Below, piece by piece: positions 6,331 through 23,937 of a stretch of 24,737 nt of DNA. Both the position numbers and the translations under genes were made by a program. This stretch comes from Planctomycetia bacterium (GTDB lineage: Bacteria; Planctomycetota; Planctomycetia; Kolteriales; Kolteriaceae). The notes below the pieces were generated by a model, which saw only the letters and a program-made list of their open reading frames with translations, was not told the DNA's origin and made no database searches. Numbering within the stretch: position 1 is the stretch's first letter; every line of letters begins with the position of its first letter. The stretch lies in the NCBI GenBank assembly GCA_051648425.1, contig JBOFFD010000430.1, forward strand, positions 1 to 24,737, in the 5' to 3' direction.

Positions 6331-6356
6331 CGTGTTCACTCCTCTCTAAGAACCAT

Positions 6357-6424: not shown

Positions 6425-6431
6425 TGTGTCG

Positions 6432-6659: not shown

Positions 6660-6749
6660 GTCGAACCTCCTGAAAGTTAAGAAAGATCTGAATCAGTTCC
6701 GCTTCAAACCATGTCGGCAGCGGCGCCAACCGTTGGAAATCAAAGTTCC

Positions 6750-7624: not shown

Positions 7625-7710
7625 CTTCGCTACCTCCTCTTCCCAGACGGCTTCGATCGCCGTTCTTAGTCCTTCGCTCAATCCAACTCACTTTCACGGG
7701 GGACGAGTTC

Positions 7711-9465
7711 TTACACCGCCGCCGCTTTCCGGCGGGGCTTCTTAGTTTTGGTTGGTTTGCCGACGGCGGCCGATTCGGCCTGCGCCGCGACGAAGGCGTC
7801 GTACTCGGCGGCCCAGGATTTCGGCGGCGGGATCTGTTCTTCGGCCCGCCGGAGGTATTCGCCGAAGTCGTCGCCGACGAAGCCCGCCTGCCGCGCGGCT
7901 TCCTCGGTCAACGAATCGAGCCGCTTGTCGTCGTTGAACCACGAGCGGTCCGGCGGCGTCCGTCGGCTCTTCAGAACCGGCTGCAACAGCTTCCAGAGTT
8001 GATCGTCGACGCGGCCCGTCGAGACGTCCCCCAGCGTCGGCCGGAAGGCGTCGAACAACATCCATGCGGTCTCGCGTGAATGCGGAACTGAATCGAGGAG
8101 CGGGGTCGTCAGATCTCTTAGAGAATCCGTCAGCGACTCCGCTCGCAGGTGGGTTCCGACGACCGATACGAGGCAGGTCAAGTCGTCGAGCGAAGGCGTC
8201 GCCGCGGCGTCGTCGTCGATCCGCTCGCTCAAGAGGTCGATCGCGAGAAACACCCGCCGCCGGCGAAGCTCGAACACCCGCTGTTCGATCGGCTTCGGGG
8301 CAGGCTTCCCGGTCGCAGGGTCGCGCGGCCGGGCGGCGGCTGCCGAACCGCCTTGCGCCGAACCGTTCCACCGCGGCCCCACCCAGAGCAGCGTCCCAGC
8401 GTCGGGGCCGTCGAGCAGCATCGCTTGGACGGCGCCCTTGTCGCCCTGTTTCGCGGCCTTTCGGTCGTGCCGGCATTCGACGCCGGGGACCGCCGACTTG
8501 TAGGCCGTCGTCAGCAGCACGAGGCCGGGGATGTCCGCCTTCTTTTCTTCGATCCACCGCTCCAGCCAGACTTCGCGTTTGCGGTTCCAGCAGGTCGCGT
8601 CGAGACAGCGGTCGCCCTTCTCCGACCGATCTTCGTCGGCGCCGTCCAGGTCGTCGAACAAGCCCGGCGTGAACGACGACCGCTTCGGGCAGGCGTTGCA
8701 GGCGCCGACGATCGGCAGCAGGGTGTCGTCGTTCGCGTGCCAGGGGGCGTCGGCGATCTCGCGCGTCCATTCGGCGAGGGCGGTTGCGAGATTCGCTCGC
8801 GACTCAAAGTCGCAGTAAGCGACGTTATACTCTTTGGCGAACGCATCCTGGGCCGCCGGTTCCAGCCGCGCGACCAATTCCAGCCAGGTGGCCGGCCAGC
8901 CGTGGACGGGGTGGTCGGGGTCGTTGGCGGCCTGCTGCCACTGCGGCGACAGTTTGACGAGCCGCGACCGCCGGGCGACCCAACCGCGCGGCTTGCCCAA
9001 GCGGTCGGCGACCGTTTCCACGTCCCAGCCGTCGGCGAGCAGCGTCGCCACGCCGCGGGCTTCCTCCAGCGGCTGCAGGTCTTCGCGCTGGAGGTTCTCG
9101 GTGACGGTGATTTCCTTCGCGGTGTGGTCGTCGACGTCGAAGACCTGGACGCGGATGTCGGTTCGTTCCGCAACCCGCGATGCCCGCCAACGGCGTTCGC
9201 CGAAGAGGATTTCGTAGCGGAGTTTGTTCTCCGGGTGCGGGCGGACGGCGATCGGCTGGAGCACGCCGTAGACCGCGATCGACTTCGCCAGTTCCTTCAC
9301 CTTCGGGTCGTCGTCGCGGACGACGCGGGGGTTGAACGGCGACGGGACGACGTCGCGGAGCGGCACCGTCTTGTCGACAGCGGCCGGCGGCGCCGGTGCG
9401 TTCGGATCGGCTGCCAGAGACGGCGTCGCGGCGGCGGTTTTCTTCGTTCGAGCCACGGGATTCAC
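7711..9465 (-). CDS. ParB/RepB/Spo0J family protein with long C-terminal extension
   Basis: PSPFNPR, LAKSIAVYGVLQPIAVRP, YEILFGERRWRAS (Arg patch), ENLQREDLQPLEEARG, then an HTH and a CNACPKR...CLDATCW Cys cluster. Alternative start GTG 9456. Confidence 0.92.
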   Translation of the reverse strand: MNPVARTKKTAAATPSLAADPNAPAPPAAVDKTVPLRDVVPSPFNPRVVRDDDPKVKELAKSIAVYGVLQPIAVRPHPENKLRYEILFGERRWRASRVAERTDIRVQVFDVDDHTAKEITVTENLQREDLQPLEEARGVATLLADGWDVETVADRLGKPRGWVARRSRLVKLSPQWQQAANDPDHPVHGWPATWLELVARLEPAAQDAFAKEYNVAYCDFESRANLATALAEWTREIADAPWHANDDTLLPIVGACNACPKRSSFTPGLFDDLDGADEDRSEKGDRCLDATCWNRKREVWLERWIEEKKADIPGLVLLTTAYKSAVPGVECRHDRKAAKQGDKGAVQAMLLDGPDAGTLLWVGPRWNGSAQGGSAAAARPRDPATGKPAPKPIEQRVFELRRRRVFLAIDLLSERIDDDAAATPSLDDLTCLVSVVGTHLRAESLTDSLRDLTTPLLDSVPHSRETAWMLFDAFRPTLGDVSTGRVDDQLWKLLQPVLKSRRTPPDRSWFNDDKRLDSLTEEAARQAGFVGDDFGEYLRRAEEQIPPPKSWAAEYDAFVAAQAESAAVGKPTKTKKPRRKAAAV

Positions 9466-9632: not shown

Positions 9633-11192
9633 ATGGCCGACTGGTACGTTCAGACCGCGACCGGCGAGAAAGGTCCGTTCTCGACCGCGAAGCTCACCGC
9701 CCTCGTCGAGGACGGCAAAGTCCCTCTTAAAGCGATGGTCCGCAAGGACGGCGGCGACTGGCAATCGGTCAAGAACTTCCCCGAGCTGCTCGGCCTGCCT
9801 GAAACCGCGGCGGCCGTTCAGATCCTTCCACCCGCCAACCGTTCTGAACAACCCATCGTCAACTTCGTGACCCAGCAGGAAGTCAAGCCTCGCCCGTCGA
9901 TGGTGCGGTTTTTCACGATGGCTTTCGGCGGAGCCTTCACCGGCGTCCTTGGCATCGTCGCCGCGATATTCTTCGTGTTCGTCGGCATTCCGCTTTTGAT
10001 CCTCGGAAGCATCGTGCTGATCGGCGTCCTTGCGGCGAGCAACGCCCCCGTCGACAAAGGGCGTGCCGCGAAAGAGGCCGATTTGGTCGCAAAAGCCGAC
10101 GCCGGCGTTCTGAAAGATGCGGCCAAGGCGATGCCGAAAGCGGCCGAACCGGCCCCCGTCCTTTCCGTCAAAGCAGAAGTGAAGGCACCGGCAAACCCGT
10201 TCGCTCCGATCCCGAAAGCCGACTTGCCTCAGATCCAGGGACCGCCAGCGCCCGCGGTCAAAAAGGATTCTCCGCCGGCTGCGGCGAAGCAAAAACCTCC
10301 CGCTCTTACCGAGGAAGAGGAAGCGAAGAAGTTCACCGTCTTCGTTCGCGCATGGCAGGACGAACAACTCGCCAAAGCGGAAGCGAACGTCGAGGAATGG
10401 AAGAACGCCGACGCCGGCGCCGATCAACGAAGGCAACTGAAGAAAGCCCAGGAAACCCTGACATCGGTCCGCAAGACTTACAGGACGCTCCTTCCAACGA
10501 TGGGAAGCGGCGCGAAGCCCGGCGACTTCGGACGTGGTCATCACCGGGTCGTCGTCGAATCGGTCGTGTCGCCGGGAGAGTTCATCGGAGTGGCGGATTT
10601 CGGCCCCGACGTTAAGGACCTCGTCGCTTGTTACACCGACGTCGTCGAAGGGGCCTTGGTCGACGACCAGGCCGTCGATCTTAGTAAGGATCTGCTCGTC
10701 GCCGACGGCGCTATGACGTTCGACACCGTCGACGGCGGAACCATGACTGTGATTCACGTTCGACGGGCGCGCGGCGTCGACCTGAAAACGGCTCAGCGAT
10801 CTCTTCAAGTCGCCGAACCAGATCCGGAAAGTGAAATACCGGTCAACGCCGGCCAGCCCGTCGCCGACGATACACGTCAACGACTCCAGGGTCGTTGGTT
10901 GCATGTCAGTCCCGACGGCGACTTGGAGGCGGACATCAAGGCCAGCCGCATCATCTTCCAGGCCGGCCAGGAAACCCAAGGGCCGTTCATCTACTCGGTC
11001 GACCTGAAGCAGACGCCGGCGGCGATCGATTGGTGGACGTCGATCAACAGGGAGGGCACGCTGCGGTCGGGCGTCTTCGAGTTGAAGGGCGACGTTCTGC
11101 GGATGACCTGGAACAAAGGAACGGAACGCCCGACCGCCCTTGAAGGCGAGGGCGCCGGGAAGAACGTCTATCGCTTCAAGCGGTCCGAGTAG
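9633..11192 (+). CDS. GYF_2 (DUF4339)-like domain membrane protein with C-terminal TIGR03067-like domain; prophage moron
   Basis: From ATG 9633: WYVQTATGEKGPFSTAKLTALVEDGKVPLKAMVRKDGGDWQSV (GYF_2 pattern), about 40 hydrophobic residues, a Pro/Ala/Lys linker, and LQGRW...YSVDLKQTPAAIDW...GVFELKGDVLRMTW...ERPT at the C-terminus. Confidence 0.82.
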   Translation: MADWYVQTATGEKGPFSTAKLTALVEDGKVPLKAMVRKDGGDWQSVKNFPELLGLPETAAAVQILPPANRSEQPIVNFVTQQEVKPRPSMVRFFTMAFGGAFTGVLGIVAAIFFVFVGIPLLILGSIVLIGVLAASNAPVDKGRAAKEADLVAKADAGVLKDAAKAMPKAAEPAPVLSVKAEVKAPANPFAPIPKADLPQIQGPPAPAVKKDSPPAAAKQKPPALTEEEEAKKFTVFVRAWQDEQLAKAEANVEEWKNADAGADQRRQLKKAQETLTSVRKTYRTLLPTMGSGAKPGDFGRGHHRVVVESVVSPGEFIGVADFGPDVKDLVACYTDVVEGALVDDQAVDLSKDLLVADGAMTFDTVDGGTMTVIHVRRARGVDLKTAQRSLQVAEPDPESEIPVNAGQPVADDTRQRLQGRWLHVSPDGDLEADIKASRIIFQAGQETQGPFIYSVDLKQTPAAIDWWTSINREGTLRSGVFELKGDVLRMTWNKGTERPTALEGEGAGKNVYRFKRSE

Positions 11193-11508
11193 CGTCACGA
11201 TCCCCCTCCTTTCTTTCCGCTTCCAGCCGCGCGATGAGGCGGCCGACATCGGCCGCCAGTTCGATCGACCAGTCGTCCGGCTTCGCCCGGACCGCCGACA
11301 GCCACTGCCGCGTCCGGCCGAGTTCGTCGGCTAACCGGCCCCAACCCCAACCCATGCGACCCTGGATCGCCTCCAACACGTCGACGCCGTGGTCGCGGGC
11401 CTGGGCCGCGATTTCCTCGCCGAGGGCGTCGCGGCGGTCCGCCGCGTCCGCCCACTGGCGTCCCATTCCCCACAGGTCGGCCGTCGTCACAATCCACCCC
11501 GTCCGCAC
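11176..11508 (-). CDS. Putative Cro-like HTH protein
   Basis: WGRLADELGRTRQWLSAV resembles an XRE/Cro HTH. It is divergent from the XRE gene across an AT-rich operator region. Confidence 0.55.
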   Translation of the reverse strand: MRTGWIVTTADLWGMGRQWADAADRRDALGEEIAAQARDHGVDVLEAIQGRMGWGWGRLADELGRTRQWLSAVRAKPDDWSIELAADVGRLIARLEAERKEGDRDATRTA

Positions 11509-11574
11509 AACCGGACCTTCCGTCGGTGAATCGGCCCGCCGCGAGCGGTTTGACCGGTCCGACCCCTAAAAGCA

Positions 11575-11641
11575 GGACACCAAGCCGGCGTACACCTATA
11601 AATGAACAAGTGTCCACTAAATGTAAACCACGGGTTTACAT
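11575..11641. promoter_or_regulatory. AT-rich divergent control region with palindromic operator
   Basis: Perfect inverted repeat ATGTAAACC-ACG-GGTTTACAT at 11621-11641, plus a GGACAC (11575-11580) / GTGTCC (11610-11615) inverted pair, between divergent HTH genes. Confidence 0.65.
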
Positions 11642-11665
11642 AGTCTCATAAAGTTGAGGTTCACT

Positions 11666-12091
11666 ATGCCCGTGAACAGGCTCGTTCGATACTTCGGACC
11701 CTTGCGTATGGCCGAAACGAAAACCGTCGATCTCTCGCCGGACGCCGTCCGCAACGGGCAGGTGCTGTCGGCTTACATTGAGTCCGCTTGGCGCGGCAAG
11801 GAAGCGGATTTAGCTTCGCGTGCGAAATGCTCGGCGAACTCGCTTTCGTTGCTCAAGCGTGGGTTTGATCGAAAAACCCGTGTCCTGAAAGATGTCTGCG
11901 CGGTCCTTTCGATCGATGCGGAAGCGATTCTCGAAGGCGAGATCAAGCCGGTCAATTTCGGCGATCGGAATGACTCGACCGACATTATTGAGCTTGCTCG
12001 CACATTGGTCGGCACCGAACACGAACCGGCCGCCCGCGCCATTCTCCAACACCTTTCCAAGCTCTCAGCCAACGAGCAGGCCGGCAGCTAG
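11666..12091 (+). CDS. XRE-family HTH regulator, candidate prophage repressor
   Basis: EADLASRAKCSANSLSLLKRG...VLKDVCAVLSIDAEAIL is an XRE HTH. GAGGT precedes ATG 11666; alternative ATG at 11708. No S24 peptidase domain is visible. Confidence 0.75.
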   Translation: MPVNRLVRYFGPLRMAETKTVDLSPDAVRNGQVLSAYIESAWRGKEADLASRAKCSANSLSLLKRGFDRKTRVLKDVCAVLSIDAEAILEGEIKPVNFGDRNDSTDIIELARTLVGTEHEPAARAILQHLSKLSANEQAGS

Positions 12092-12289
12092 CCGACTCTT
12101 CACTCGCTTGCATTCACCTTCCGGAATGCGATAGTACGTCCGCACTTTGCCACTCCGACCCGTCCTGGGCGACGGAACCGCCTTCACGAATCCCTGGTGA
12201 ACCCAGTCGTAGACCGTTCCGTAGGCGACACCGATCTCTGCCGCCAACTCGCGGATCGTTGAGTGACGTTCGAGCTTCGTTTTGCTCAT
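12065..12289 (-). CDS. MerR-like / excisionase-type winged-HTH protein (74 aa)
   Basis: STIRELAAEIGVAYGTVYDWVHQGFVKA...YYRIPEGEC pattern; strong GAGGAG RBS. Confidence 0.8.
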   Translation of the reverse strand: MSKTKLERHSTIRELAAEIGVAYGTVYDWVHQGFVKAVPSPRTGRSGKVRTYYRIPEGECKRVKSRLAAGLLVG

Positions 12290-12337
12290 CCGATCTCCTC
12301 TCGCTCGAAAGCATTTCCCCGCAAGTTGGACGATTTA

Positions 12338-12381
12338 TGATAACTTGGTTTGATTTCATCCAGTTCGTGATTATCTTGGTT
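12338..12381. promoter_or_regulatory. Imperfect direct repeats in the second divergent control region
   Basis: TGATAACTTGGTT (12338-12350) and TGATTATCTTGGTT (12368-12381), 30 bp apart in an AT-rich gap between divergent genes. Confidence 0.45.
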
Positions 12382-12437
12382 GAGTCGGTCGTAAACGGCA
12401 AGTAGCCGAACGAAAGATTTTTTCCCAGGAGGTCCGA

Positions 12438-12812
12438 ATGCCCGAAGAAAACCGCGATTCCGCACGCCCCGCGTTCGACGTGGACGCGACCCTCGACGCG
12501 CTCTGCGACGAGCTGCACGACGAATTGCCGCACGAACTCCACCGCTGGAACGACGACGGCGGGATCGATCCGGAAGTGGTCGCCCAGGCCGAGGCCGGCG
12601 ACGCCGCGCCGACGCCGGAGCAGCTCGCCGACGAAGTGGTGGACGCCCTCGACGACTTTCTCCTGAACGTTTGGGGGGCGCTCTGCGGCGTCTACTGGAA
12701 CCGCCCGGACCTGCGCGACCGGATGGACCAGATCCAGTACGACGGCACGATGGCGTTCGCCCGCAAACAGGGCTACGAGGCGGACGACCGCGAGATCGGA
12801 GGCGCCGCATGA
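12438..12812 (+). CDS. Highly acidic small phage protein
   Basis: AGGAGG RBS; first gene of the rightward operon. Manual count about 31 D/E versus 9 K/R in 124 aa. Confidence 0.8.
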   Translation: MPEENRDSARPAFDVDATLDALCDELHDELPHELHRWNDDGGIDPEVVAQAEAGDAAPTPEQLADEVVDALDDFLLNVWGALCGVYWNRPDLRDRMDQIQYDGTMAFARKQGYEADDREIGGAA

Positions 12813-13417
12813 CCACGATCCTCCGCGCCGAGGACGCGGCCGAGCGGCGGACCGACGTCGCCGGCTGGGTCTGCAAGAAGTGCGGCCGCTTCTGCGGCGA
12901 CGGCGAATACGGCGAGCGGCAGGCCCGCCACTGCTGCGCCAACGATTCCCCGTGCGCCTGCGGCTGCGGCGCCCGCTGCGAAGGCCGCCGTCGAACGGTC
13001 TGCGAAGGCTGCCGACGCGCGTTGAGCGACGCCCGGTTCAACCGCCTGCCGGTGGTCGAATGGGACCACGAAACCCCACTCCTCGTCTGGGACGACGACC
13101 TGTTCCTCTTCAGCGAGGACGAAGTCGCTGAACACCTCGGCGATCGTCTCGCCGACGGCTACGCGCTGGAGGACGTTCAATTGGAGCTTTGCGAGCGGGT
13201 CGTCCCGCCTCTGTTCGAGATGCACGTCTTTCTCTGCGACGACCTGCACGAAGACGCCGAGCTGCCGCCGACCGACGCGATCGAAAAGACGGTGAACGAT
13301 TGGATCGACGCGAACTTCCCGACGGGTTGGACCGGCGGCGGCAAGCGGATCGCCGTCGAGTCGCTGCGGGCGATCGCCGACCACTGGAAACTCCTGCCGG
13401 AACGAGGTGACGCATGA
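12809..13417 (+). CDS. Cys-rich (zinc-binding-like) phage protein
   Basis: ATGA overlap with the upstream gene. WVCKKCGRFCGD...ARHCCAND..CACGCG..C...VCEGC N-terminus and acidic C-terminal half. Confidence 0.8.
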   Translation: MTTILRAEDAAERRTDVAGWVCKKCGRFCGDGEYGERQARHCCANDSPCACGCGARCEGRRRTVCEGCRRALSDARFNRLPVVEWDHETPLLVWDDDLFLFSEDEVAEHLGDRLADGYALEDVQLELCERVVPPLFEMHVFLCDDLHEDAELPPTDAIEKTVNDWIDANFPTGWTGGGKRIAVESLRAIADHWKLLPERGDA

Positions 13418-13662
13418 ACGAACCAGAAAAGCGGATCGACGACGACGGCGGCCCGGCGTTTCCGCGGGCCGAGTACTTCTACGAGCCGGGCATGACCTTG
13501 GGGGACTGGTACGCGGGGCAGGCGCTGTTGGGAATTCTGGCCTCGCCGGCGTCGTTCACTCTCGGCGGAGTCTCGCCGACGACGCCGGCCGAGATTGCCG
13601 AACTCGCGCACGCATACGCCGACGCAATGGTCGCCGAAGGCCGGAAGCGGGGCGACTCATGA
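13414..13662 (+). CDS. Conserved small phage protein (GGPAFP...GMTL family)
   Basis: DGGPAFP...GMTLGDWYAGQALLG...AYADAM matches a widespread small phage family pattern. ATGA overlap. Confidence 0.85.
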   Translation: MNEPEKRIDDDGGPAFPRAEYFYEPGMTLGDWYAGQALLGILASPASFTLGGVSPTTPAEIAELAHAYADAMVAEGRKRGDS

Positions 13663-13943
13663 CCACCGAGGAAACCGACGACGAACACGCCGCGCGGGCG
13701 ATCGCGTGGATGAACGTGGTCAATCCGGGCGGCCGCGAAGGCTGCTTGCGGCCCGCGGTCCCGACGGCGATCTTCGTCGGGCGGCCCATTCCGGAGGACG
13801 GACGGCCGCCCGGACCGTCCCTCGTCTTCGCCGTCCCCGTCGAACGGCTGCGTCTCGACCACTCGGTCGCGGCGCTGTTCTTTCTCGGCCTGACGGCCGC
13901 CGTCGGCGCCGACCCGCTGCGCGGCTGCACCAACTGCAACTGA
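13659..13943 (+). CDS. Phage hypothetical protein (94 aa)
   Basis: ATGA overlap at 13659-13662 and in-operon position; no recognisable family. Confidence 0.6.
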   Translation: MTTEETDDEHAARAIAWMNVVNPGGREGCLRPAVPTAIFVGRPIPEDGRPPGPSLVFAVPVERLRLDHSVAALFFLGLTAAVGADPLRGCTNCN

Positions 13944-14005
13944 CAGCCTTCCGACACCGACAACCAATCGAATCCGAACACCGAACCACCCCTCAAGGAG
14001 CGACC

Positions 14006-15763
14006 ATGTCCACCGCTTTGCAGACCGCCCCCGCGACCGCCGTCGCCGAGGCCGAACCGCTCACCGCCGACGACGTCCGCCGGCAGGTGCAACTGATCCA
14101 GACCGTGATGAAAACGGTCATGAAGAGGACCGTCCACTACGACGAAATTCCCGGCTGCGGCGACAAGCCGACCCTGCTGAAGGCCGGCGCCGAAAAGCTC
14201 TGTATGACCTTCCGCCTCGCCCCCCGCTTCACCGACGTCCGCCACGAGATGACGGGCGGGCACTTTGAAGTGAAGTTCACCTGCGCCCTACACTCCGCGC
14301 TCTCCGGCCGCTTCCTCGGCGAGGGCGTCGGCTCGTGCTCGACGATGGAAAGCAAGTACCGCTATCGGGACTCGAAACGGCATTGCCCGCAGTGCGGCAA
14401 GGAGACGATCATCCGCGGCCGCGAAGAGTTCGGCGGCGGTTGGCTCTGCTTCAAAAAGCAGGGCGGCTGCGGCGCGAAGTACGTCGCCGGAACGCCGGCG
14501 ATCGAAGAGCAACCAATCGGCAAGACCGAGAACCCGGACATCGCCGACTGCTACAACTCGGTGCTGAAGATTGCGAAGAAGCGGGCGCTCGTTGATGCGA
14601 TTTTGACGGTCACGGCGGCCAGCGACATCTTCGCGCAAGACCTGGACGATACGCCGGCCGAGGCGCTGCAGCCGACGAAGCCGCCGGCGACGACGGCCCG
14701 TCGTACCGAGACCGACGCGGTCGACGTGGAAGCCCGCCCGGCCGCGACGCCGACGGCGGCCGCCAGCGCCGCCGGCGAGCTGCCCGACGACCGCCGGCGC
14801 GTCGAGCGGCCGGCCGCAACGTCGCCGGCGACGACCGCGAAGCCCGGCACCTCGGCCGAGTACGAAGGGTTCCGCACCGCCGTCGCCGAGCTGGTCGACG
14901 CCGACAAGTACGGCGCCGCCTGGCCGGGGGGCGTGAACGCCGTCCGGGCCTGGATTCTCGAACGGCGGAAGGAGTCGGCCCCCGGTTTCGAGTTCGCTTC
15001 GTGGTCGACCCTCGCCACGACAAACGACCCGTCCGTGTTCGACGCGATTCTGCGGGCCGTCGAAACGGAATCGCGCCGCCGCGTCGACGAACCGACCGAG
15101 CCGCCAGCGAATTCGGCCGTCGAATCTCAATGTCGCAATGCGACACCTGATGTAGCATCGCCGGTTTCGCCCCAGGCCGCGCCGCCGGCGACGGCGGCCG
15201 CCGAATCGCCATCCGCTGGGGCCGCGACGGCGAAGACGAAGGCCGGCTTCCCCTGCTCGGAGTTGTTCAAGGACTTGGAGGCATGGCTCGGCGACCTGGC
15301 CCGGAAGTATTCCCGCACCTGGTCGAAGCGCGAACTGTGGGAGGCCGCGAAGGATGTCGCCCTGGAGCGGAAGCTGTCGGAGGAAATGCTCCGCGTCTCG
15401 GCCTCGCCGGGCGTCTTCGAGTCGATCAAGACGCGAATCCGGGCGCTGACGAAGGACCGCCAAGCGGCCGGCGTCGCCCCGTCCGCCTACCGCCGCCTCG
15501 CCGACGCCGTGAAGCGAGTGACGCAGCTCGCCCCGAAGGCGTGGCCGCGGGGGACCGTCGAGGTCTGGGGCTGGATCGAAGGCCGCATCGGCGTCGACCG
15601 CACGACGGCCCTGGCCGAGCAATGCGACGACCAGCAGGCCGACGAACTGATCGAGGCGGTCCTCCAGGAAAACCGCGAGCGGCTCGATGCCGACGCCGGC
15701 CCCGGCGGCGCCTTGTGGGACGACGCCCACCTACCGGCGGAACACGCCGGCGTCGGGCTGTGA
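14006..15763 (+). CDS. Putative phage single-strand annealing / recombination protein with zinc-ribbon insert and repeated C-terminal domain
   Basis: AAGGAG RBS before ATG 14006. Motifs KPTLLKAGAEKL, GEGVGSCSTMESKY and NSVLKIAKKRALVDAIL...SDIFAQDLDD, with a CPQCGK...WLCFKKQGGCG insert. The function is inferred from motif resemblance and position. Confidence 0.65.
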   Translation: MSTALQTAPATAVAEAEPLTADDVRRQVQLIQTVMKTVMKRTVHYDEIPGCGDKPTLLKAGAEKLCMTFRLAPRFTDVRHEMTGGHFEVKFTCALHSALSGRFLGEGVGSCSTMESKYRYRDSKRHCPQCGKETIIRGREEFGGGWLCFKKQGGCGAKYVAGTPAIEEQPIGKTENPDIADCYNSVLKIAKKRALVDAILTVTAASDIFAQDLDDTPAEALQPTKPPATTARRTETDAVDVEARPAATPTAAASAAGELPDDRRRVERPAATSPATTAKPGTSAEYEGFRTAVAELVDADKYGAAWPGGVNAVRAWILERRKESAPGFEFASWSTLATTNDPSVFDAILRAVETESRRRVDEPTEPPANSAVESQCRNATPDVASPVSPQAAPPATAAAESPSAGAATAKTKAGFPCSELFKDLEAWLGDLARKYSRTWSKRELWEAAKDVALERKLSEEMLRVSASPGVFESIKTRIRALTKDRQAAGVAPSAYRRLADAVKRVTQLAPKAWPRGTVEVWGWIEGRIGVDRTTALAEQCDDQQADELIEAVLQENRERLDADAGPGGALWDDAHLPAEHAGVGL

Positions 15764-15830
15764 GGTCCAAACCGCCCTCGGAACATGGTCAAGACTATCG
15801 ACGCCCTGAGAGAGATCGATTTTGCGCGGT

Positions 15831-16580
15831 TCAGGGCGTACCGACCTCGTCCTCTTGACGCTCCTTCGATTCTTTCTCGTGCCAGATCTTTGAAAGCAGC
15901 TTGTCGTAAACGTCCATCACGATCGACAATTCAAGCGACTGATTGGCCTTGAACTCTTGCAAAAGAACAATCGCCGAGTTCGACGTAACCATGATCTTGT
16001 GCTCGTGCCCGTCCATCACCCAGGGAATCGTGACGTTCGATAGGTATCCGTCCCGACAGAACTTTCGGAACAGCACGTCGTCCTGGATCTGGTCGCCTGA
16101 CAGGTTCGCCGCTCTCACTCTCGCCGAAATGCCGCGAAACCATGCGCTGAAGTACACTTTGCATTGCTCTTGCAGTTTCAGGAAATCAACTTTCATTTCC
16201 GCAATCTCCAACCTGTCTTGGTTGGCCTTCAGATTGGCGTACACGCTTCGGCAGACCTTCTTCGTCGACTGAAAAAGCATGACCTTGCGTTCTTCGTCGA
16301 GAAACGCTGGAAAGTTGACGGGCTGCAAGTACTCGAAGAACTCGATCTTTCTCTTCTCGGCGCCGACGTCCGTCTTAATGTATCCATAGACGTTGTGCTT
16401 AACTTGACTCTGAATCTTCAGCAGGTCGAGACTTTTCTCGAAGGTGCGGCTCTTCATTGTGACGCTGGTCTCGATGTCCTCCCCATCTCCGAAGAAGGTT
16501 TCCTGCACCTGAGTAACTACGAAGTCTTGGGCCTGGAGCTTCGGAAACTTTTTGACGCGATAAAACTGATAGGGTTTCAT
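15831..16580 (-). CDS. Unknown cytoplasmic protein (249 aa), second gene of a coupled pair
   Basis: Clean ORF in visibly lower-GC DNA. GGAGG RBS; ATG 16580 overlaps the upstream TGA (TGATG). No family recognised. Confidence 0.85.
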   Translation of the reverse strand: MKPYQFYRVKKFPKLQAQDFVVTQVQETFFGDGEDIETSVTMKSRTFEKSLDLLKIQSQVKHNVYGYIKTDVGAEKRKIEFFEYLQPVNFPAFLDEERKVMLFQSTKKVCRSVYANLKANQDRLEIAEMKVDFLKLQEQCKVYFSAWFRGISARVRAANLSGDQIQDDVLFRKFCRDGYLSNVTIPWVMDGHEHKIMVTSNSAIVLLQEFKANQSLELSIVMDVYDKLLSKIWHEKESKERQEDEVGTP

Positions 16581-17383
16581 CAACTTCCTCCAACAGGAGC
16601 CGCTTCAAGCGTCACGACCTTGGAAAGCGCTTCCCGCCAGTCAACGAGACTGGCGCTTTCAATGTTGACGAACTCCCGAACCGCTTCGATTCGGCAGGAC
16701 GAATCCTTGTTGAGCTTGAACCGAACCTCGAAATCATCCACCAGAGCTTCGGGGATATGGTTCAGGAAAAATCCGTAGTACGGGTTCGAGGCGCCGACGT
16801 CGAAGGTCACTGTTACGGCGTACGCCGTCGAGGTCGGTTGCGGAACCGCCTCGCGCACCGACTCGGCGATCTTCACCAACCTTCTACAGGCTCTTTCATA
16901 AAGATGCGAGGGCACCAACTGCTTGCGGTCGAGACACACGGCCAACGCATCGCCGTCGAACCGCAGCACGACGCGCACTTCGTCGTCGATCAAGATCGCC
17001 GATGATACCACGCTTGAATCATCGAGCACCGCGTCACCTTTGAAAGCACGTTTGATGGCGTCGGCGGCTTTCGAGACCACCTCGTTCTTTTGCTTCACGG
17101 TGAGTTCGTCGAACTGAAACCGAAAGAGGGGCTTCCAATAGGTGTGAGTCCGGGACATCCGAAACAGCAGCCGTCGGACCCAGAAATGGAACCTGGGATT
17201 GCGGTGGTACAGGACGCTCGCCGCGAAAGAGTAGAATCCGACGAGCGCCGACACTGCCGTCGTCATTCCATTGTAACGACCGAGCTGATCTTCAATCTGG
17301 TCGTTGAAGATGTAGCCGAGCCAGGCGACGGCGGCTAAGACGACGACGAGCACGAACGCGACCAGAAAATCGTATCTCACCAC
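16580..17383 (-). CDS. Unknown protein with two N-terminal TM helices, first gene of a coupled pair
   Basis: TM1 FLVAFVLVVVLAAVAWLGYIF and TM2 TTAVSALVGFYSFAASVLY, then about 200 aa of soluble alpha/beta sequence. AGGAAG precedes GTG 17383 (maximal ORF start 17416). Confidence 0.85.
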   Translation of the reverse strand: MVRYDFLVAFVLVVVLAAVAWLGYIFNDQIEDQLGRYNGMTTAVSALVGFYSFAASVLYHRNPRFHFWVRRLLFRMSRTHTYWKPLFRFQFDELTVKQKNEVVSKAADAIKRAFKGDAVLDDSSVVSSAILIDDEVRVVLRFDGDALAVCLDRKQLVPSHLYERACRRLVKIAESVREAVPQPTSTAYAVTVTFDVGASNPYYGFFLNHIPEALVDDFEVRFKLNKDSSCRIEAVREFVNIESASLVDWREALSKVVTLEAAPVGGS

Positions 17384-17542
17384 AAGGCCCTTCCTAGAAA
17401 ACCGGCCTCCTGCCACGCGGACTGGCGAATCCGGACACTTCCGGCCCGTCCGCGCCAGCGCGGAACCGTCGCCATGAACCCACTACGTTTCCAGCAGCGA
17501 CACTGTTCGTGTGTTCACATCCTTCGTTTCCCTCGTCGCGAA

Positions 17543-17899
17543 TTACGCGGGCGTAGCAGCCTTCTTCAAGTTTTCGATGACCTGTTTCGGATCCCGTTTG
17601 ATTTCATCCATGAAGCGTCTGGCGATCGTGGGGACAGGTTTTCCTTGTTCCCACGACTGCAACGTCTTCACCGAAACGCCGAGGTACTTGGCGAAGACCG
17701 CCTGGGAAAGCCCAAGCGAATGCCTCATCTTTTTGACGCCGTCGGCGTCGTACTCGGCCGGCTCCAGCTTCAATTCGATGCTTCGGCAAGTGAAACGCTC
17801 GGAGATCTTTTCCCCTTTTTCCAGAGCGTCCGCGAATCCTTGAAGCCGGCTCAACATCCGATCCGCCACCGGACTCCCGCCGTCCTCTCGCTGCGACAT
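17543..17899 (-). CDS. higA: HigA-like HTH antitoxin (XRE/HTH_3)
   Basis: VKKMRHSLGLSQAVFAKYLGVSVKTLQSWEQGKP...ARRFMDEI. AAGGAG RBS before ATG 17899; directly downstream of a RelE-type toxin. Confidence 0.88.
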   Translation of the reverse strand: MSQREDGGSPVADRMLSRLQGFADALEKGEKISERFTCRSIELKLEPAEYDADGVKKMRHSLGLSQAVFAKYLGVSVKTLQSWEQGKPVPTIARRFMDEIKRDPKQVIENLKKAATPA

Positions 17900-17957
17900 C
17901 GTCGACTCCTTGATAGTTTTTGATCTCGGATTCAATTTCAGATTCACGATGCGGCTT

Positions 17958-18383
17958 TTATCCGATCGTTCCATCGCTGAGTTCATTTTCGATGCACTTG
18001 ATGATCTTGGCGTACATCGCCTTCTGCGCCGGAGAAATGTCGTCTTTCTCGCTCTTACCGTACGCGCCGACGAGGAGTACGACGCTCCACTCTTCAAAAT
18101 ACACGTAGCATATCCTGGCGCCGCCGCTCTTCCCCGTCCCCCACCGAGAGGGGGCGAACCGACCCTTTCGCAAGCCGCCGGTTCCAGGGACCACCTTCGC
18201 ATACTTCGGGCCGGTCATGATGCACATCTGCAGCGCTCGAAGGTCGTCGTCCGTCAGACGCAAGTGCTTCCAGTCGTCCTGGAACCCGTCCAACTCGATG
18301 AACCGGAGGAAATCCTCCGGTTGGAAATCGCTCGCCGCGTATCGCAAAACACGTTTCTCTTTGGTGGATCGTTTCAGGACCAC
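17958..18383 (-). CDS. higB: HigB-like RelE/ParE superfamily toxin
   Basis: FIELDGFQDDW...DDDLRALQ...VVPGTGGLRKGRFA...GKSGGARICYVY...LLVGAYGKSEKDDIS. The start is uncertain: the promoter at 18448-18475 argues against the track start (18524), so GTG 18383 or TTG 18347 is more likely. Confidence 0.9.
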   Translation of the reverse strand: MVLKRSTKEKRVLRYAASDFQPEDFLRFIELDGFQDDWKHLRLTDDDLRALQMCIMTGPKYAKVVPGTGGLRKGRFAPSRWGTGKSGGARICYVYFEEWSVVLLVGAYGKSEKDDISPAQKAMYAKIIKCIENELSDGTIG

Positions 18384-18447
18384 TTGCTTCGGATCTGGTT
18401 CCAGCGGTAGTTTCCTCTTCGACAAGAGTCCCTTCCGGCTCCAGTGA

Positions 18448-18475
18448 ACTATACCTTTAAGTGGGATAGCGTCAA
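18448..18475 (-). promoter_or_regulatory. higBA promoter with embedded palindromic operator
   Basis: Minus strand TTGACG (18475-18470), 16 nt, TATAGT (18453-18448). Imperfect palindrome CTATACC-N7-GGGATAG (18449-18469) covers the spacer and -10 box, as expected for antitoxin autorepression. Confidence 0.7.
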
Positions 18476-18586
18476 GCCGCTCCGTCCGCATTTTTCCCCG
18501 TTCGGACGCCGTCTCGCTTAACAAACGACCCGTTCACCAGCCATACCTACAGTGACCAGTTCAACGGCGTGGCGGAGGTAGCGGGA

Positions 18587-18811
18587 ATGGACGATTTGGA
18601 CCGGCTGGCGGCCTTGATCCAGGCGGCGCGGCGAGACTTCGACCGTATGGGCGGGCCGGTGCCGTTGCGGGCGGAAGCGGCCTGGGCGGCGGGGTACGTT
18701 GGCGTGCTACGGGAGGAATCCGAGCTGCTCGACGAACTGGATCGGCGACTGCTGCCCGTGCAGCTCGGCGAACTCAGGCGACTCGCCGACGACCTCGCCG
18801 CCAAGAAATGA
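18587..18811 (+). CDS. Small helical hypothetical protein (74 aa)
   Basis: GGAGGT upstream of ATG 18587; amphipathic helical sequence; divergent from higBA. Confidence 0.6.
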   Translation: MDDLDRLAALIQAARRDFDRMGGPVPLRAEAAWAAGYVGVLREESELLDELDRRLLPVQLGELRRLADDLAAKK

Positions 18812-18839
18812 AAGCGGGCCGGCATCCTTGCCAGCCCGC
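18803..18839 (-). terminator. Probable intrinsic terminator
   Basis: Stem GCGGGC-C-GGCA / TGCC-A-GCCCGC (18814-18839), followed on the minus strand by TTTCATTTCTT, just after the stop of the gene ending at 18867. Confidence 0.5.
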
Positions 18840-18866
18840 CGGTGGTTCAACTATTCGCATCCGGCG

Positions 18867-19391
18867 TCATTCGTCGGCCGGCAGGTCCGAAGCGAAGCCG
18901 CTCGCCACGGCCAAACGACGGTTGAACGACTCGGCCAGCAGATGGCCGAAGCTGGGCGCCTTCGCGTTGAGTTCGGCGTGTTCGTCCGCCGTCTTCTTGG
19001 CGTCGGCGTAGGCGGCCTTCGCGATCGACTTGATGCCCGCATCCTTTGCAAACGCCACAGAGATTCCCTTCGCACCGCCGCCCTTGGCGAAGATCGCCGG
19101 CAGCGGGCCGCGCGGCTTCACCAGGTCTTCGGGGCTGGTGAACGACAAGGCTTTGAACGTCTGTCCCTGCACCTCGCCGAGGCTGACGATCAGCGACGTT
19201 CCCGGAGCCTCGGTTTTCTCAACGAGCGACAGGAAGTCCTTCGACTTCGACAGCGCCTCGACGTATTCGTCGCCGGTCTTCGCGCGAGCGGCGATCTCCG
19301 ACAGCCAGGTCCGCATTTTTTCGCGGACGACCGGCTTTTCGCCCGCGTCCGCCGTCGCCGCGAGGGCGGCCAAGGCAAGGAGAATCCCCAT
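18867..19391 (-). CDS. Secreted hypothetical protein (Sec signal peptide); moron
   Basis: MGILLALAALAATADA-GEK has an A-X-A cleavage site. GGAG upstream of ATG 19391; Ala/Lys-rich mature region. Confidence 0.75.
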   Translation of the reverse strand: MGILLALAALAATADAGEKPVVREKMRTWLSEIAARAKTGDEYVEALSKSKDFLSLVEKTEAPGTSLIVSLGEVQGQTFKALSFTSPEDLVKPRGPLPAIFAKGGGAKGISVAFAKDAGIKSIAKAAYADAKKTADEHAELNAKAPSFGHLLAESFNRRLAVASGFASDLPADE

Positions 19392-19526: not shown

Positions 19527-20009
19527 TCAGTCGACGCACGGATCGACGACCCCGACGTCGACGTGCAACGCCTTGGCGACCTTCTCCAGCGTCAAATGCG
19601 TCGCGCTGTGAGCGGCGTTTTCGATGCGGCTGACGTGGCTCTGCGTCAGACCCGCCTTCTCGGCCAGTTCGGTTTGGCTTAGTCCCGCCCGCTCGCGCAA
19701 CTGCCGGATCGTCTGGCCGACGTGTTTCGCCCAGGCGTCCAGGCCGCGCGACAACGCCTTGTCCGCCGTCGGGAACGGCATCGGTTTGGTCCGGATCGGG
19801 ATCTGCGCCAGTATCTCCTCCATCGCCCGCTGGATGCCGCGACGGGTTTCGTCGTCGGTTTCCTCCCGGATGGCTCCGACCAGTTCGTACAGGTCGTCGC
19901 GGTCCGCCTTCGGCAGCGACCGGATCCTTTCCATGACGACCGACAGAGCCAACACCGCCTGTTTCGCCTGCTCGGGCAGGCCGGCGTACGGTTCCATCTC
20001 TTTCAGCAT
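19527..20009 (-). CDS. Antitoxin-like regulator with C-terminal XRE HTH and N-terminal helical extension
   Basis: VGQTIRQLRERAGLSQTELAEKAGLTQSHVSRIENAAHSATHLTLEKVAKALHV. Downstream of a RelE-type toxin. ATG 20009 preferred over TTG 20045. Confidence 0.85.
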   Translation of the reverse strand: MLKEMEPYAGLPEQAKQAVLALSVVMERIRSLPKADRDDLYELVGAIREETDDETRRGIQRAMEEILAQIPIRTKPMPFPTADKALSRGLDAWAKHVGQTIRQLRERAGLSQTELAEKAGLTQSHVSRIENAAHSATHLTLEKVAKALHVDVGVVDPCVD

Positions 20010-20019
20010 GGGTTCATTC

Positions 20020-20053
20020 CAAGTATTCAAGTGTTCAAGTGTCAAGTGTTCAA
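20020..20053. repeat. Tandem 7-8 bp repeat (CAAGTRTT)n
   Basis: CAAGTATT CAAGTGTT CAAGTGT CAAGTGTT CAA read directly at 20020-20053. Confidence 0.85.
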
Positions 20054-20175: not shown

Positions 20176-20607
20176 TCAGCTTTCGTGCGGTTCGACCGAT
20201 TCGAGGAAAAGCCGTTTGCGGCGTCTCATCGTGACCTTGTCGCCGATCGGCGTCGCTCCGTCGTTTTCCTTTTTGATCGCGCCGAGGACGACGATGGCGC
20301 CGGTCGGCTTGTGCACGAAAAAGAAGACGCGGACGTTGAGTCTTTTCAAAACGCCGCCCTTGTCTCGCAGTTCATGAAAATCCTCGATCGGGCGGACGTC
20401 CACGGTGTCGCTGTGGGTGACGTCCTCTTGGCTGGCCAGCTCGCGAAACTGCCGAGCGATATGGTCGTACTGGTCGGCGTCCAGGATGCTCATCGCCTCG
20501 TCGAACGCTCGATCAAGGATCTGGATGGACCACCGATACCCAGGCGGCGGGCCGCCGCCCTTCTGGACGCCGACCTTGACGGCCTTCCTTTGGGGTTCAT
20601 CCGACAT
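20176..20607 (-). CDS. RelE/ParE superfamily toxin (Gp49/DUF891-like)
   Basis: DVRPIEDFHELRDKGGVLKRLNVRVFFFVHKPTGAIVVLGAIKKEND matches the ELR...R.FF...VVL.A..KK pattern. GGAGG upstream of ATG 20607. Confidence 0.85.
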   Translation of the reverse strand: MSDEPQRKAVKVGVQKGGGPPPGYRWSIQILDRAFDEAMSILDADQYDHIARQFRELASQEDVTHSDTVDVRPIEDFHELRDKGGVLKRLNVRVFFFVHKPTGAIVVLGAIKKENDGATPIGDKVTMRRRKRLFLESVEPHES

Positions 20608-20627
20608 TCCCGATACCTCCATCGCGT

Positions 20628-20766: not shown

Positions 20767-21165
20767 TCAATCCGCTTCCCAGGCCGGGCAGCGCTCGCAG
20801 GCGGCGAGCGTCGTCCGGCCGCCGTTGGCGGCTTCGGGGCAGTCGCACCCGTACACGTCGAGCAACGGGCAACGGCATGACGCCCGCTCGATCGGCGTGT
20901 TCGACTTGTGCAGGCAGTTCGACCGGACGCGGAGCGGCCGAGGCGGGCCGTAGACTTCGACCGTCGGCAGCCTCGGGGCGTCGGGCGCCGGCGCGAAGAC
21001 CGATCTCAGTTGCAGCACTACCGACGTCGGCCGTTCCAGGGTCGGAGGGCCGTCCGACCACTCGGATCGGCACTCCGCGCATGTATTTCCGGACGCTCGG
21101 AAACCGGCTTCCGCCAGCGTACAGAACGTCGTCGCCCCGTTGGTAAGTTCGTGCGGGCATTTCAT
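20767..21165 (-). CDS. Small Cys-rich protein, last gene of the tail operon
   Basis: ATGA overlap with the upstream gene; Cys in CxxC, CxC and CxxCP arrangements. Confidence 0.7.
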   Translation of the reverse strand: MKCPHELTNGATTFCTLAEAGFRASGNTCAECRSEWSDGPPTLERPTSVVLQLRSVFAPAPDAPRLPTVEVYGPPRPLRVRSNCLHKSNTPIERASCRCPLLDVYGCDCPEAANGGRTTLAACERCPAWEAD

Positions 21166-22565
21166 TCAGAGAATCCGAACGGAGTAATACACCCCTCGAC
21201 CGGCCTTGTGTACGGCGGACTGCACCAATCCATTGATCCAGAAGGAACGTCGGGTCGGTCGTATCTGGTCCACGCGAGCGACCCAAGCGGCACGGCGGCG
21301 GCGTCCCTGGCGGCGTAAGGCGGCCGGTAAAAGAAAGCGAACCCCGCTCGACGGTGCCCGCCTGGGATGCCGGCGTTGCTATGGATTCCCGATGCGTTGA
21401 AGCTCCCGACGATACGATCGCCGTCATACTCGCCCACTCGTCGCCCTATTCTACTTTCGGCGTACTGACCTCCAAACAAGCAGTTTCTAAGACCAACGCC
21501 CGGCACCGAGGCCAATCCCACTTTAACGTTGTGTTCCAAAAGACTGTTCACTAAGTCTGTCCCGCCGCACGTTCCGACCGAATCGTAACTAGGCGCTCCA
21601 CAGTCGGGGAAGGTGTGACGCACGGCCTGGTTCGCATAGTTCACGCCGGCGGCGATGTACGTGCAGCCGACGACCCACCCGTCGCAGATTTGAACGCCGG
21701 CGATCTGACCCGTACTCAGCGTTCCGCCGCTCGTCGTACATGTGTGACCAATCGCCCCGCTAAGCATGAACGCTTTGAAGCTTTCGACGCTCCATCCAGC
21801 GAGCACCCCGTGCGCCCCCTCGAAAGTACAACCCGTGCCGATCAAATTTGTAATGATCTGCGACGGGCCGGGGTTCTCCTGCATGGCTACCAGCGCGGCC
21901 GCGAAGTCGCCTTCCGTGGCAATGGGGCCGATGTACCGGTTTTCCTGGAGGCCCAATCTGTGAAAGCACGGCGTCGGCAGCGGATCGCAACCCCCTTCGT
22001 GCGTAAACGTCGCCGAAAGAAAGTCGCTGTAGCTGTCGGGAATCGGCCGCGCCCGGGCCGTGTCGCATTGACTGATAATCCAACTGAGGCAGGTCGTGTC
22101 CGGGTGGGTGTGCGACGGCCCCTTCCGCCAGCGCTCGCCGATCTTATCGACGCCGTCGCGCACGTACTCCACGTCGCCGGCGTCGGTCTCCATGTAGAGC
22201 CGGGTCAACCAAAGTTCACTGCCGACGAGAACGACGGTCGCTTCCACCGGCCGCCACGACGTGTCGCCGCCGGGGTCGCGGCGGGTGTAAGAAGTACCGC
22301 CGGCGTTGACCAGCAGGAAACCTTCGATGCCGAGGTGGGCCTGGATGTAACTCATGCCGTCGGCGTCGATGTTCGGCCTGAATTCCTTCTCCAATCCGAC
22401 TTCGCCGGGCGCGCTCGCTTTAAGAACGATCGCGGTGGGCTGATACGGGCTGATTCCGGGAATGGGCAGCGAGAACGCCAACGGCGGCCGCCACGGCGTC
22501 CAGTATTGGCGGACCGGATCGCAGCAGCAGCCGCAGCCGTCGAGCAGTGGGATTCGACCGCCCAT
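21162..22565 (-). CDS. Putative tail-tip / receptor-binding protein
   Basis: 467 aa ORF at the distal end of the tail module; DGCGCCCDP N-terminus and Gly/Thr/Cys-rich beta-like C-terminal part. Function inferred from position. Confidence 0.6.
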   Translation of the reverse strand: MGGRIPLLDGCGCCCDPVRQYWTPWRPPLAFSLPIPGISPYQPTAIVLKASAPGEVGLEKEFRPNIDADGMSYIQAHLGIEGFLLVNAGGTSYTRRDPGGDTSWRPVEATVVLVGSELWLTRLYMETDAGDVEYVRDGVDKIGERWRKGPSHTHPDTTCLSWIISQCDTARARPIPDSYSDFLSATFTHEGGCDPLPTPCFHRLGLQENRYIGPIATEGDFAAALVAMQENPGPSQIITNLIGTGCTFEGAHGVLAGWSVESFKAFMLSGAIGHTCTTSGGTLSTGQIAGVQICDGWVVGCTYIAAGVNYANQAVRHTFPDCGAPSYDSVGTCGGTDLVNSLLEHNVKVGLASVPGVGLRNCLFGGQYAESRIGRRVGEYDGDRIVGSFNASGIHSNAGIPGGHRRAGFAFFYRPPYAARDAAAVPLGSLAWTRYDRPDVPSGSMDWCSPPYTRPVEGCITPFGFSE

Positions 22566-22569
22566 GTTC

Positions 22570-23010
22570 TTACTCGCACTTCGGCAGGAAGGCGAACGCC
22601 GACCAGTTGTCGATCCAGACCGCGAGACCCTTCGCGTTGGCGGCCGCCGCGCCGAACTCTTCCCGAACCGTCACGCGCGACCCCTGCTCCGCTCCGGCGG
22701 CGTCGACGAGCTTCATTTCCGCGGTGCCGCCCTCGGCCAGGGCGCCGGCCAGTTTGCCGAACAGGAACGTTTTCTTCGCGCCGCGCGTCGGCCGTTTGAC
22801 ACCGGTCGTTTCGACCCGCCGCAGCCGCCGGTCGAAGGCCGTCCACATTTCGGCGATCTTGCGGTTCTGTTCGGCCGTGAGGCCGCGTAGGGTTTCCGCC
22901 ATCGCCGCGACGAGGGCGGCGACGGCGCGGACGGCGAGGCGGACGATGTCGGCGGCGGTGAGAAAGTCGCCGGCGGCGGCCGGCGCTAAGATCAATTCTC
23001 CGGGCCGCAT
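22570..23010 (-). CDS. Phage tail-region hypothetical protein
   Basis: GGAGG 6 nt before ATG 23010; tightly packed between tail genes. Confidence 0.7.
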   Translation of the reverse strand: MRPGELILAPAAAGDFLTAADIVRLAVRAVAALVAAMAETLRGLTAEQNRKIAEMWTAFDRRLRRVETTGVKRPTRGAKKTFLFGKLAGALAEGGTAEMKLVDAAGAEQGSRVTVREEFGAAAANAKGLAVWIDNWSAFAFLPKCE

Positions 23011-23011
23011 C

Positions 23012-23869
23012 TTAAACCTCCAGCCGCAGCTTGCGGAACGGCTTACGTTTGTACGCCTTGAACTTGATGAAGTGGGTTTCGCCGTCGGGCAGCTTGTCGC
23101 CGTCCTTCATGTTGACCGGCTCGGTGACCGCTTGGCCGTCCTTGTCTTTGATCGGCTCCAGCGTATTGCCGGACTTCTTGTACAGTCCTTGGTCGAGGAT
23201 CTCTTTGAACCATTTGTTTTCGTTGTGGTGGATCTCGTAGCGGACGCGGTGGTAGCGCAGCTCGCCCTCCTTCACGAGCCGCGCCGTCGGGCATTTCATC
23301 TTCCAGCAGCCCGGTTCCTCGCCGTAGAACTGATCGTCGTTGACGGCGTCTTTGTACTCCAATTGCAGCTTCACGGTGAAGTTCGGCTCGTTCCGCTCGA
23401 TGACTAAGACGGGCCGCGAGTCGTCGATCTCGGCGGGCGCGCCGAACGGCTGGCCGGCGCCGTTGAGAACCGGGCCACCCGGCGAGCCGTCCTCGTTCAC
23501 TTCGCGGTCGAACGCGCGGGTGAATTCCGCGCAGCCGTGTTCGACGTCGGGCGTGCGGTCCTCCGGGTTTTCTTCTTCCTTCTCTTCGTCGACTTTACTG
23601 TCGAAAAGGCACGTCACCAGCCAGGAGGTTTCGCTGCCGTCGACGCGCTTCCATTTGCGGGAATTGCAGCGGGCGCCGAGGTCGATCTTGCCGTGGAAAG
23701 AGTAGGGCGAGCCGATTGACGGGAGTTGACCGAAGAGCGCGAGTCCCAGGCTGAGTGGTTCTTCCGTGCGGAGCGCGTGTTCGACGATGTAGGTGAGGGT
23801 GTACTTTCGCTCGCGCTTGAGACCCTCTTCGGCCTCCTGGTCGTAAAGTCTTACCGTCGCCTTCGCCAT
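23012..23869 (-). CDS. Putative distal tail / hub protein following the tape measure
   Basis: Directly downstream of the tape measure. PVLNGAGQPF...IDDSRPVLVIERNE...VNDDQFYG...ILDQG...IKDKDGQAVTEPV motifs resemble a conserved planctomycete prophage protein. Confidence 0.7.
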   Translation of the reverse strand: MAKATVRLYDQEAEEGLKRERKYTLTYIVEHALRTEEPLSLGLALFGQLPSIGSPYSFHGKIDLGARCNSRKWKRVDGSETSWLVTCLFDSKVDEEKEEENPEDRTPDVEHGCAEFTRAFDREVNEDGSPGGPVLNGAGQPFGAPAEIDDSRPVLVIERNEPNFTVKLQLEYKDAVNDDQFYGEEPGCWKMKCPTARLVKEGELRYHRVRYEIHHNENKWFKEILDQGLYKKSGNTLEPIKDKDGQAVTEPVNMKDGDKLPDGETHFIKFKAYKRKPFRKLRLEV

Positions 23870-23937
23870 GTTCGACCGCCCTCCCCGCTGGTTGTCGCAG
23901 CGAGCGAACGGCGGCCGGACTTATTTTTCAGATCGAC

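Follow-up and report, generated by a model that had tools for sequence, protein, structure and literature searches.

What do two adjacent genes of no recognisable family, at positions 15831-17383 of contig JBOFFD010000430.1 from a Planctomycetia bacterium, do for the DNA that carries them? The stretch analysed, hereafter the window, is one whole 24.7-kb contig (24,737 nucleotides) from a 5.9-Mb, 85%-complete metagenome-assembled genome. A first-pass annotation of its sequence had put forward the two genes, termed A and B here, as a candidate new anti-phage system, by analogy with RexAB, Kiwa and Sbash gp30-31. That proposal is supported by the pairing of A with B in 16 of 16 loci, by the embedding of the pair within Hma systems and by a predicted RdgC-type fold for B, from which a defence function may be inferred. 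The reading favoured here, with a probability of roughly 55%, is that A and B constitute a self-contained, horizontally mobile two-gene module directed against phages or other mobile elements, with a logic like that of RexAB or Kiwa. The features on which the analysis centres are as follows.

16580-17383, minus strand: gene A, a membrane-anchored protein of 266-267 amino acids (aa), with a GTG start at 17383 or 17380
15831-16580, minus strand: gene B, a soluble protein of 249 aa, with an ATG start at 16580
16578-16591, minus strand: the coupling junction, a GGAGGA Shine-Dalgarno followed by TGATG, as read from the sequence

The frame of A stays open as far as a GTG at 17416 (longest open reading frame (ORF) 16580-17416, minus strand). 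The true start is likely the GTG at 17383 or 17380, which is preceded by an AGGAAGG Shine-Dalgarno-like site; the public database gene call for A is 266 aa long, and homologs begin at the equivalent position. The only coding-like long frames in this part of the window are ORF A (16580-17416) and ORF B (15831-16583), and spurious ORFs were ruled out, as the A and B proteins are both conserved across phyla. At the junction, GGAGGAAGTTGATG, the TGA stop of A (16582-16580) has one base in common with the ATG of B, and the GGAGGA lies 5 nt upstream. Judged by this arrangement, A and B are translationally coupled. Overlaps of 1 or 4 nt and co-orientation recur in most homologous A-B pairs, with a convergent arrangement in one lineage, L026/27.

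The composition of the pair is foreign to the window. Over 15831-17383 the guanine-plus-cytosine (GC) content is 0.541, compared with 0.656 in the remainder of the window; the block made up of the pair and the upstream RelE-like and helix-turn-helix (HTH) genes has 0.552. At third codon positions (GC3) the values are 0.71-0.72 in A and B versus 0.80-0.89 in the flanking genes. The coupled module with a TGATG overlap and the lower-GC DNA described by the first-pass annotation are thus both present, and its remark that neither gene belongs to a recognisable family also holds, since neither A nor B gave a significant match in Pfam, PADLOC, PHROGs or NCBIfam. No match to either protein at E<=1 was present in PADLOC-DB v2.0.0 (5027 models of known and candidate systems), and profiles of the A and B families against all PDB sequences returned nothing at E<=10. 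None of 61 diverse members of the B family matched Pfam, including PF15969 (RexA) and PF04381 (RdgC), and B itself showed no match to PF04381 at E<=1. A literature search on defence proteins that resemble RdgC or RexA and have a membrane partner found only the RexA structure paper and the Pseudomonas putida RexAB paper. On this analysis, the pair is best described as Rex-like in architecture and uncatalogued in PADLOC v2 and Pfam.

The two genes are strictly paired. Close database homologs number 8 for A (36-44% identity) and 11 for B (49-60%), with a mean column identity of 57% in the A alignment (12 homologs) and 70% in the B alignment. When the B profile was run against 1.84 billion representative proteins, 282 clusters, defined at 50% identity, were retrieved at E<=1e-3, and the stricter cut-off of E<=1e-10 left 96. 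At each of the 16 independent loci for which DNA was obtained, a homolog of A lay adjacent to B. The pairing persists among the most distant members, in which B has ~20% identity and matches to the A profile lie at 1e-3 to 1e-8; the distant A partners retain their hydrophobic helices at the N terminus as well as an NPY[YFW]GF motif. Neither gene was found on its own, and A and B are thus an obligate two-gene module. Among the findings that the first-pass annotation had named as counting against its proposal were a known family and homologs that do not co-occur; neither appeared.

Damaged copies were also seen. In L006/7 the A gene is broken into two parts of 88 and 151 aa (L006:2322-3131 / L007:7195-8004), B is frameshifted and spread over two frames in L015 (7917-8761), and at L026/27 A is split as well as convergent with B (L026:857-1693).

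The family is wide and thinly scattered. Its 282 B clusters span Planctomycetota, Verrucomicrobiota and many Bacillota-labelled clusters, and the named source genomes of homologs include Planctomycetales, Isosphaeraceae, Sedimentisphaerales and Pedosphaera; look-alikes of A and B in the ESM Atlas are unnamed clusters, mostly labelled Bacillota. Scanning genome contigs with the close B alignment gave three loci. Within the phylum, B was present in 1 of 401 sampled genomes, namely the window's own, which holds one copy. The distribution of the module within the phylum is therefore very sporadic.

Where homologous pairs reside was assessed through PADLOC scans of 101 neighbouring proteins together with selected proteins. 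Three lineages carry the pair between HmaA and HmaB, with the gene orders given below.

L001-3: HmaA (2e-229, full length), A, B, NucS-like PD-(D/E)xK nuclease, PDDEXK_3, HmaB (4.5e-137)
L005: the same order as L001-3, with HmaA, HmaB and HmaC in fragments
L006/7: C-terminal fragment of HmaA, NucS-like gene, split A, B, two small genes, HmaB

Payne et al. showed that what is nested in Hma is usually a defence system, 7 of 9 tested having worked (10.1101/2024.01.29.577857). The position of A and B, nested between Hma core genes, therefore makes them a defence candidate by guilt-by-embedding (10.1101/2024.01.29.577857). The nine embedded candidates HEC-01 to -09 belong to families of ATPases, GmrSD-like proteins and RNases, and the 145 further candidates of the same authors are included in PADLOC (10.1101/2024.01.29.577857). 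A and B occupy the same HmaA-HmaB slot as the embedded candidates of PADLOC-DB v2 (HEC-01 to -09, PDC-S/M); identity with HEC-01 to -09 was ruled out, these being different families.

The same position could suggest that A and B serve the restriction-like Hma system as accessory subunits and do not form an independent module. In L001-3 the pair sits inside the Hma operon, and the 3' end of hmaA and the start of A have 4 nt in common. Such a role is very improbable, given that 13 of the 16 loci have no Hma genes nearby, the window included (the genome of the window was not searched for Hma).

Two side observations concern these loci. In L005 the Hma genes are fragmented (5866-8258, 11533-18917) while A and B are intact, which could be real decay or long-read frameshift errors. 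All three Hma systems also carry a PD-(D/E)xK nuclease of the NucS_C/YhcG_C type (L001:5115-6041, L005:9024-9944, L007:6287-7225), the C-terminal half of which matches the PADLOC single-gene candidate PDC-S02 at 1.5e-22. This nuclease may be a separate passenger or an optional third component.

Elsewhere the pair is often found in defence loci of other kinds, with the neighbours listed below.

L004: DrmD-like helicase (2e-213), UvrD helicase, AbiTii, DNA methylase, Prim-Pol
L015: Eco57I/MmeI-type (type IIG) restriction-modification (RM) gene
L017: Tsp45I RM
L008: HD/dGTPase-like gene and a PIN toxin-antitoxin (TA) pair
L010: dCTP deaminase
L023: HerA-like HAS-barrel/DUF87 ATPase (9800-11500), 100 bp downstream of the pair

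Locus L023 belongs to a distant branch and also has a NurA gene ~6.4 kb upstream, which may indicate a different partner set.

The folds of both proteins were predicted with moderate confidence. The AlphaFold2 model of B (pLDDT, a predicted local distance difference test score, of 77) consists of a beta domain with eight strands at the N terminus, an insertion that forms a domain with four strands and several helices, and a long C-terminal helix. The top PDB match in Foldseek was Escherichia coli RdgC (2OWL; probability 0.98). RdgC was also the top match in VIA-align, with Z 7.6 over 196 residues and both proteins matched end to end; the runner-up reached Z 6.0 in a wide search, and Z 5.1 when the Foldseek matches were re-scored. 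E. coli RdgC was in fact the top match to B in every PDB search, over nearly the full length of both proteins. The kinetochore proteins CENP-N and Iml3 (CENP-L/N type), which are known relatives in the RdgC fold, were among the structure matches as well. A shape search of the ESM Atlas with B returned RdgC (template modelling (TM) score 0.53) and RexA (0.49), plus DUF4747 and DUF6731 clusters, and clusters of the AlphaFold database matched B weakly, to unnamed proteins only. The crystal structure of lambda RexA shares the RdgC fold, and the protein binds DNA non-specifically (PMC11077077). In RexA, a dimerisation domain of four strands and four helices splits a globular beta domain, which a C-terminal helix closes (PMC11077077), and the order of elements in the B model parallels this description. 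Taken together, the models indicate that B probably has an RdgC-class fold. The RexAB analogy thereby gains a structural basis, since RexA shares the RdgC fold and the best structural match of B is RdgC; the first-pass annotation, made from the sequence alone, could not have had it. The shape neighbours DUF4747 (PF15931) and DUF6731 (PF20505) may be further uncharacterised families with the RdgC fold.

The match to RdgC also admits a different role, in which the pair, tethered to the membrane and RdgC-like, would modulate recombination, replication or the uptake of DNA and would serve the cell or the element and not immunity, for instance by keeping RecA in check on the DNA of the element or by fixing DNA to the membrane. 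RdgC is a recombination-associated DNA binder and not a defence protein, and the matches of B in the viral structure library BFVD include phage RdgC-like 'recombination-associated proteins'. Several distant loci lie among ordinary genes (GidB, YchF, ribosomal proteins, tRNA synthetase), and in the window the pair adjoins a recombination-type early gene (phrog_10048). Housekeeping of this kind is hard to square with three independent insertions between HmaA and HmaB and with the RM, DISARM-like and Abi neighbourhoods; the extreme sporadicity and the foreign composition of the pair argue against it as well. B differs from RdgC in being shorter (249 versus ~300 aa), in having no sequence match to PF04381 and in being obligately paired with a membrane protein, sporadic and borne on mobile elements, whereas RdgC is a core gene. 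We consider a modulator role of this type rather unlikely.

For A, the AlphaFold2 model (pLDDT 82) shows two long N-terminal helices, a third, amphipathic and Arg-rich helix, and two beta-alpha-beta4-alpha units. The corresponding features are the following.

17297-17371, minus strand: first transmembrane helix of A (helix 1), ~residues 4-28 when numbered on the 266-aa form (modelled as helix 2-29)
17201-17272, minus strand: second, weaker hydrophobic helix of A, ~residues 37-60 (helix 37-60 in the model)
16583-17155, minus strand: predicted cytoplasmic domain of A, residues 76-266, with two beta-alpha-beta4-alpha repeats and a TBP-like fold in the model
16766-16786, minus strand: NPYYGFF motif, the signature of the A family, invariant in the close family

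Helix 1 has a Kyte-Doolittle mean of up to 2.75 and is hydrophobic in all homologs. Helix 2 stays below 1.6 in this copy; the transmembrane threshold is passed in most homologs but not here. Because of an acidic loop and the Arg-rich stretch that follows helix 2 as the amphipathic helix, the sequence fits a hairpin with both ends inside (N-in/C-in), which would leave a soluble domain of ~190 aa in the cytoplasm. The two transmembrane helices plus soluble domain of ~200 aa in the earlier description are borne out, with the second helix the weaker one in this copy. Foldseek matched A to TBP and arginine kinase, and VIA-align gave DUF4468 at Z 8.0, followed by KA1 domains, AdoMetDC and a TBP-like protein; the matches span Z 6-8 and include the arginine kinase/glutamine synthetase catalytic fold. 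The soluble domain is thus modelled as a generic TBP-like double domain, a common fold that says little on function. A feature search of the ESM Atlas among named clusters with this domain gave no usable match. The motif varies to NPY[FW]GF or NPFFGL in the distant A partners of L016, L017 and L019.

Placed beside known systems, the pair is closest in layout to RexAB and the Rex-like pairs Sbash gp30/31, CarolAnn gp44/43, Butters gp30/31 and P. putida PP_5643/5644. In both cases a soluble protein of the RdgC/RexA fold class (by the model, for B) is adjacent to and co-oriented with an inner-membrane partner, and both reside among accessory genes of a temperate or integrative element. B has no sequence or profile similarity to RexA (PF15969). 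RexB (PF15968) is a small protein with four transmembrane helices, whereas A has one strong and one weaker helix, a predicted TBP-like domain of ~190 aa and no Pfam match. The A-B order also differs in that the membrane gene comes first, and the pair is not beside the repressor. Like Kiwa, the pair joins a membrane protein bearing an intracellular domain to a soluble partner, which in the case of B would be a DNA binder. A membrane-tethered, sequence-nonspecific DNA binder can confer immunity, as seen in Kiwa, in which KwaA has four transmembrane helices and a beta-barrel and KwaB a Rossmann-like domain and DUF4868 (10.1101/2023.02.26.530102). Membership of Kiwa itself was ruled out, as there were no PADLOC or Pfam matches (DUF4868 included) and the predicted folds and domains differ.

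How such a module could act may be outlined from these parallels. B, with its predicted RdgC-type fold, would act as sensor or DNA binder and would detect phage DNA as it enters, or an intermediate of phage DNA and protein; DNA binding is proposed for B because RdgC and RexA bind DNA. A would be anchored in the inner membrane by its N-terminal hairpin, and its cytoplasmic TBP-like double domain would dock B. In one option, infection would lead B to activate A and so to damage or permeabilise the membrane, a Rex-like abortive infection. In another, A would hold B at the site of DNA entry, where B would clamp phage DNA and block its replication in the manner of Kiwa. The roles could also be exchanged: in phage Butters the effector is the soluble protein, which its membrane partner holds back (PMC12894663). 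Infection sensing by RexAB has been unresolved for decades, and about five Rex-like systems have been studied (PMC12894663). Co-folding of A with B gave a score of 0.00, which weighs neither for nor against the presumed contact.

Several points weigh against this anti-phage reading, the support for which is wholly computational. Six of the 16 loci (L013, L014, L016, L019, L026, L028) had no recognisable defence neighbour, and none of 50,697 phage or 72,556 plasmid records gave a tblastn match to B. The fold matches are modest (TM 0.4-0.55, Z <8), and Z <8 may, by the caution that accompanies the structure tool, reflect a common arrangement. The RexA crystal structure (8TWQ) was outside the top 50 PDB matches of B, and hhalign of the B family with an alignment of lambda-type RexA (22 sequences) gave a probability of 0.3%. 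B is not notably basic (pI 5.4-8.9), and A resembles neither RexB nor KwaA. A single glycine column is invariant in the wide B family, and a binding or scaffolding protein is therefore favoured over an enzyme.

More boldly, A and B may found an uncatalogued and phylogenetically wide defence family, consisting of an RdgC-fold DNA sensor and a novel membrane partner with a hairpin, a TBP-like double domain and an NPYYGF motif; the chance of this stronger proposition is put a little under even. It would extend the Rex principle beyond RexB-type partners with four transmembrane helices, and the effector mechanism might differ accordingly. An RdgC-fold DNA binder joined to a membrane protein would then be a general immune design in which the membrane half is interchangeable, and a compact pair of ~1.55 kb would be added that current defence finders miss.

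The remainder of the window is, as far as the evidence goes, an integrative element and possibly a prophage. It encodes an integrase, a ParB-like protein and a protein matching phrog_10048, but no virion gene was recognised in the window; the phage surroundings assumed in the first-pass annotation are thus borne out only in part. The genes that place the pair are these.

4173-5414: tyrosine integrase, on the same contig as the pair
14009-15760, plus strand: 584-aa protein convergent with B, matching phrog_10048 (function unknown) at 1e-46 over its first ~200 aa
17543-17872, minus strand: HTH_3 (XRE-type) antitoxin-like gene directly upstream of A (Pfam HTH_3, 2.9e-08)
17958-18524, minus strand: RelE/HigB-like toxin gene, the first gene of the co-oriented low-GC block (weak Pfam RelE match, 5.6e-4)
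20176-20622 and 19527-20045, minus strand: second TA-like pair, Gp49-like and HTH_3 respectively, on the same strand as A and B

The protein at 14009-15760 has a long Pro/Ala/Thr-rich C-terminal part and no Pfam match. None of five consecutive minus-strand ORFs with coding-like GC3 (20767-24735) matched Pfam, and the ORFs at 21162-22565, 23012-23869 and 23938-24735 had no match in PHROGs; these scans gave no support for the 'tail operon' that the first-pass annotation had supposed here.

The adjacent TA pairs noted in the first-pass annotation are present as two TA-like pairs on the strand of A and B (RelE-like/HTH_3 and Gp49-like/HTH_3), and they raise the question of whether A and B are themselves a toxin-antitoxin or addiction module. 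A would then be a membrane toxin checked by B, or the reverse as in Butters gp30/gp31, and stabilisation of the element would be primary, with any effect on phages secondary. The position of the pair, which in its low-GC block comes immediately after two TA pairs, would suit such a module, as would the tight translational coupling, the broken copies (A split in L006/7 and L026/27, B frameshifted in L015) and the documented reversal of soluble and membrane roles among Rex-like systems (PMC12894663). Proteins of 266 and 249 aa are, however, large for a classic TA pair, and neither gene is found alone. We regard addiction as quite unlikely to be the main role; it overlaps with abortive infection and does not exclude it.

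The toxin, HTH, A and B genes, which share an orientation and a single low-GC block, could be read as one transcript. In a scan for terminators and promoters, no convincing terminator was found after B, and the one promoter-like site lay upstream of the TA pair. This sigma-70-like promoter (18475-18448, minus strand) falls inside the 5' region of the RelE-like ORF, which is listed at 188 aa and matches RelE in its C-terminal part only. Because the site lies within that 5' region, the start of the RelE-like toxin is probably downstream of 18448.

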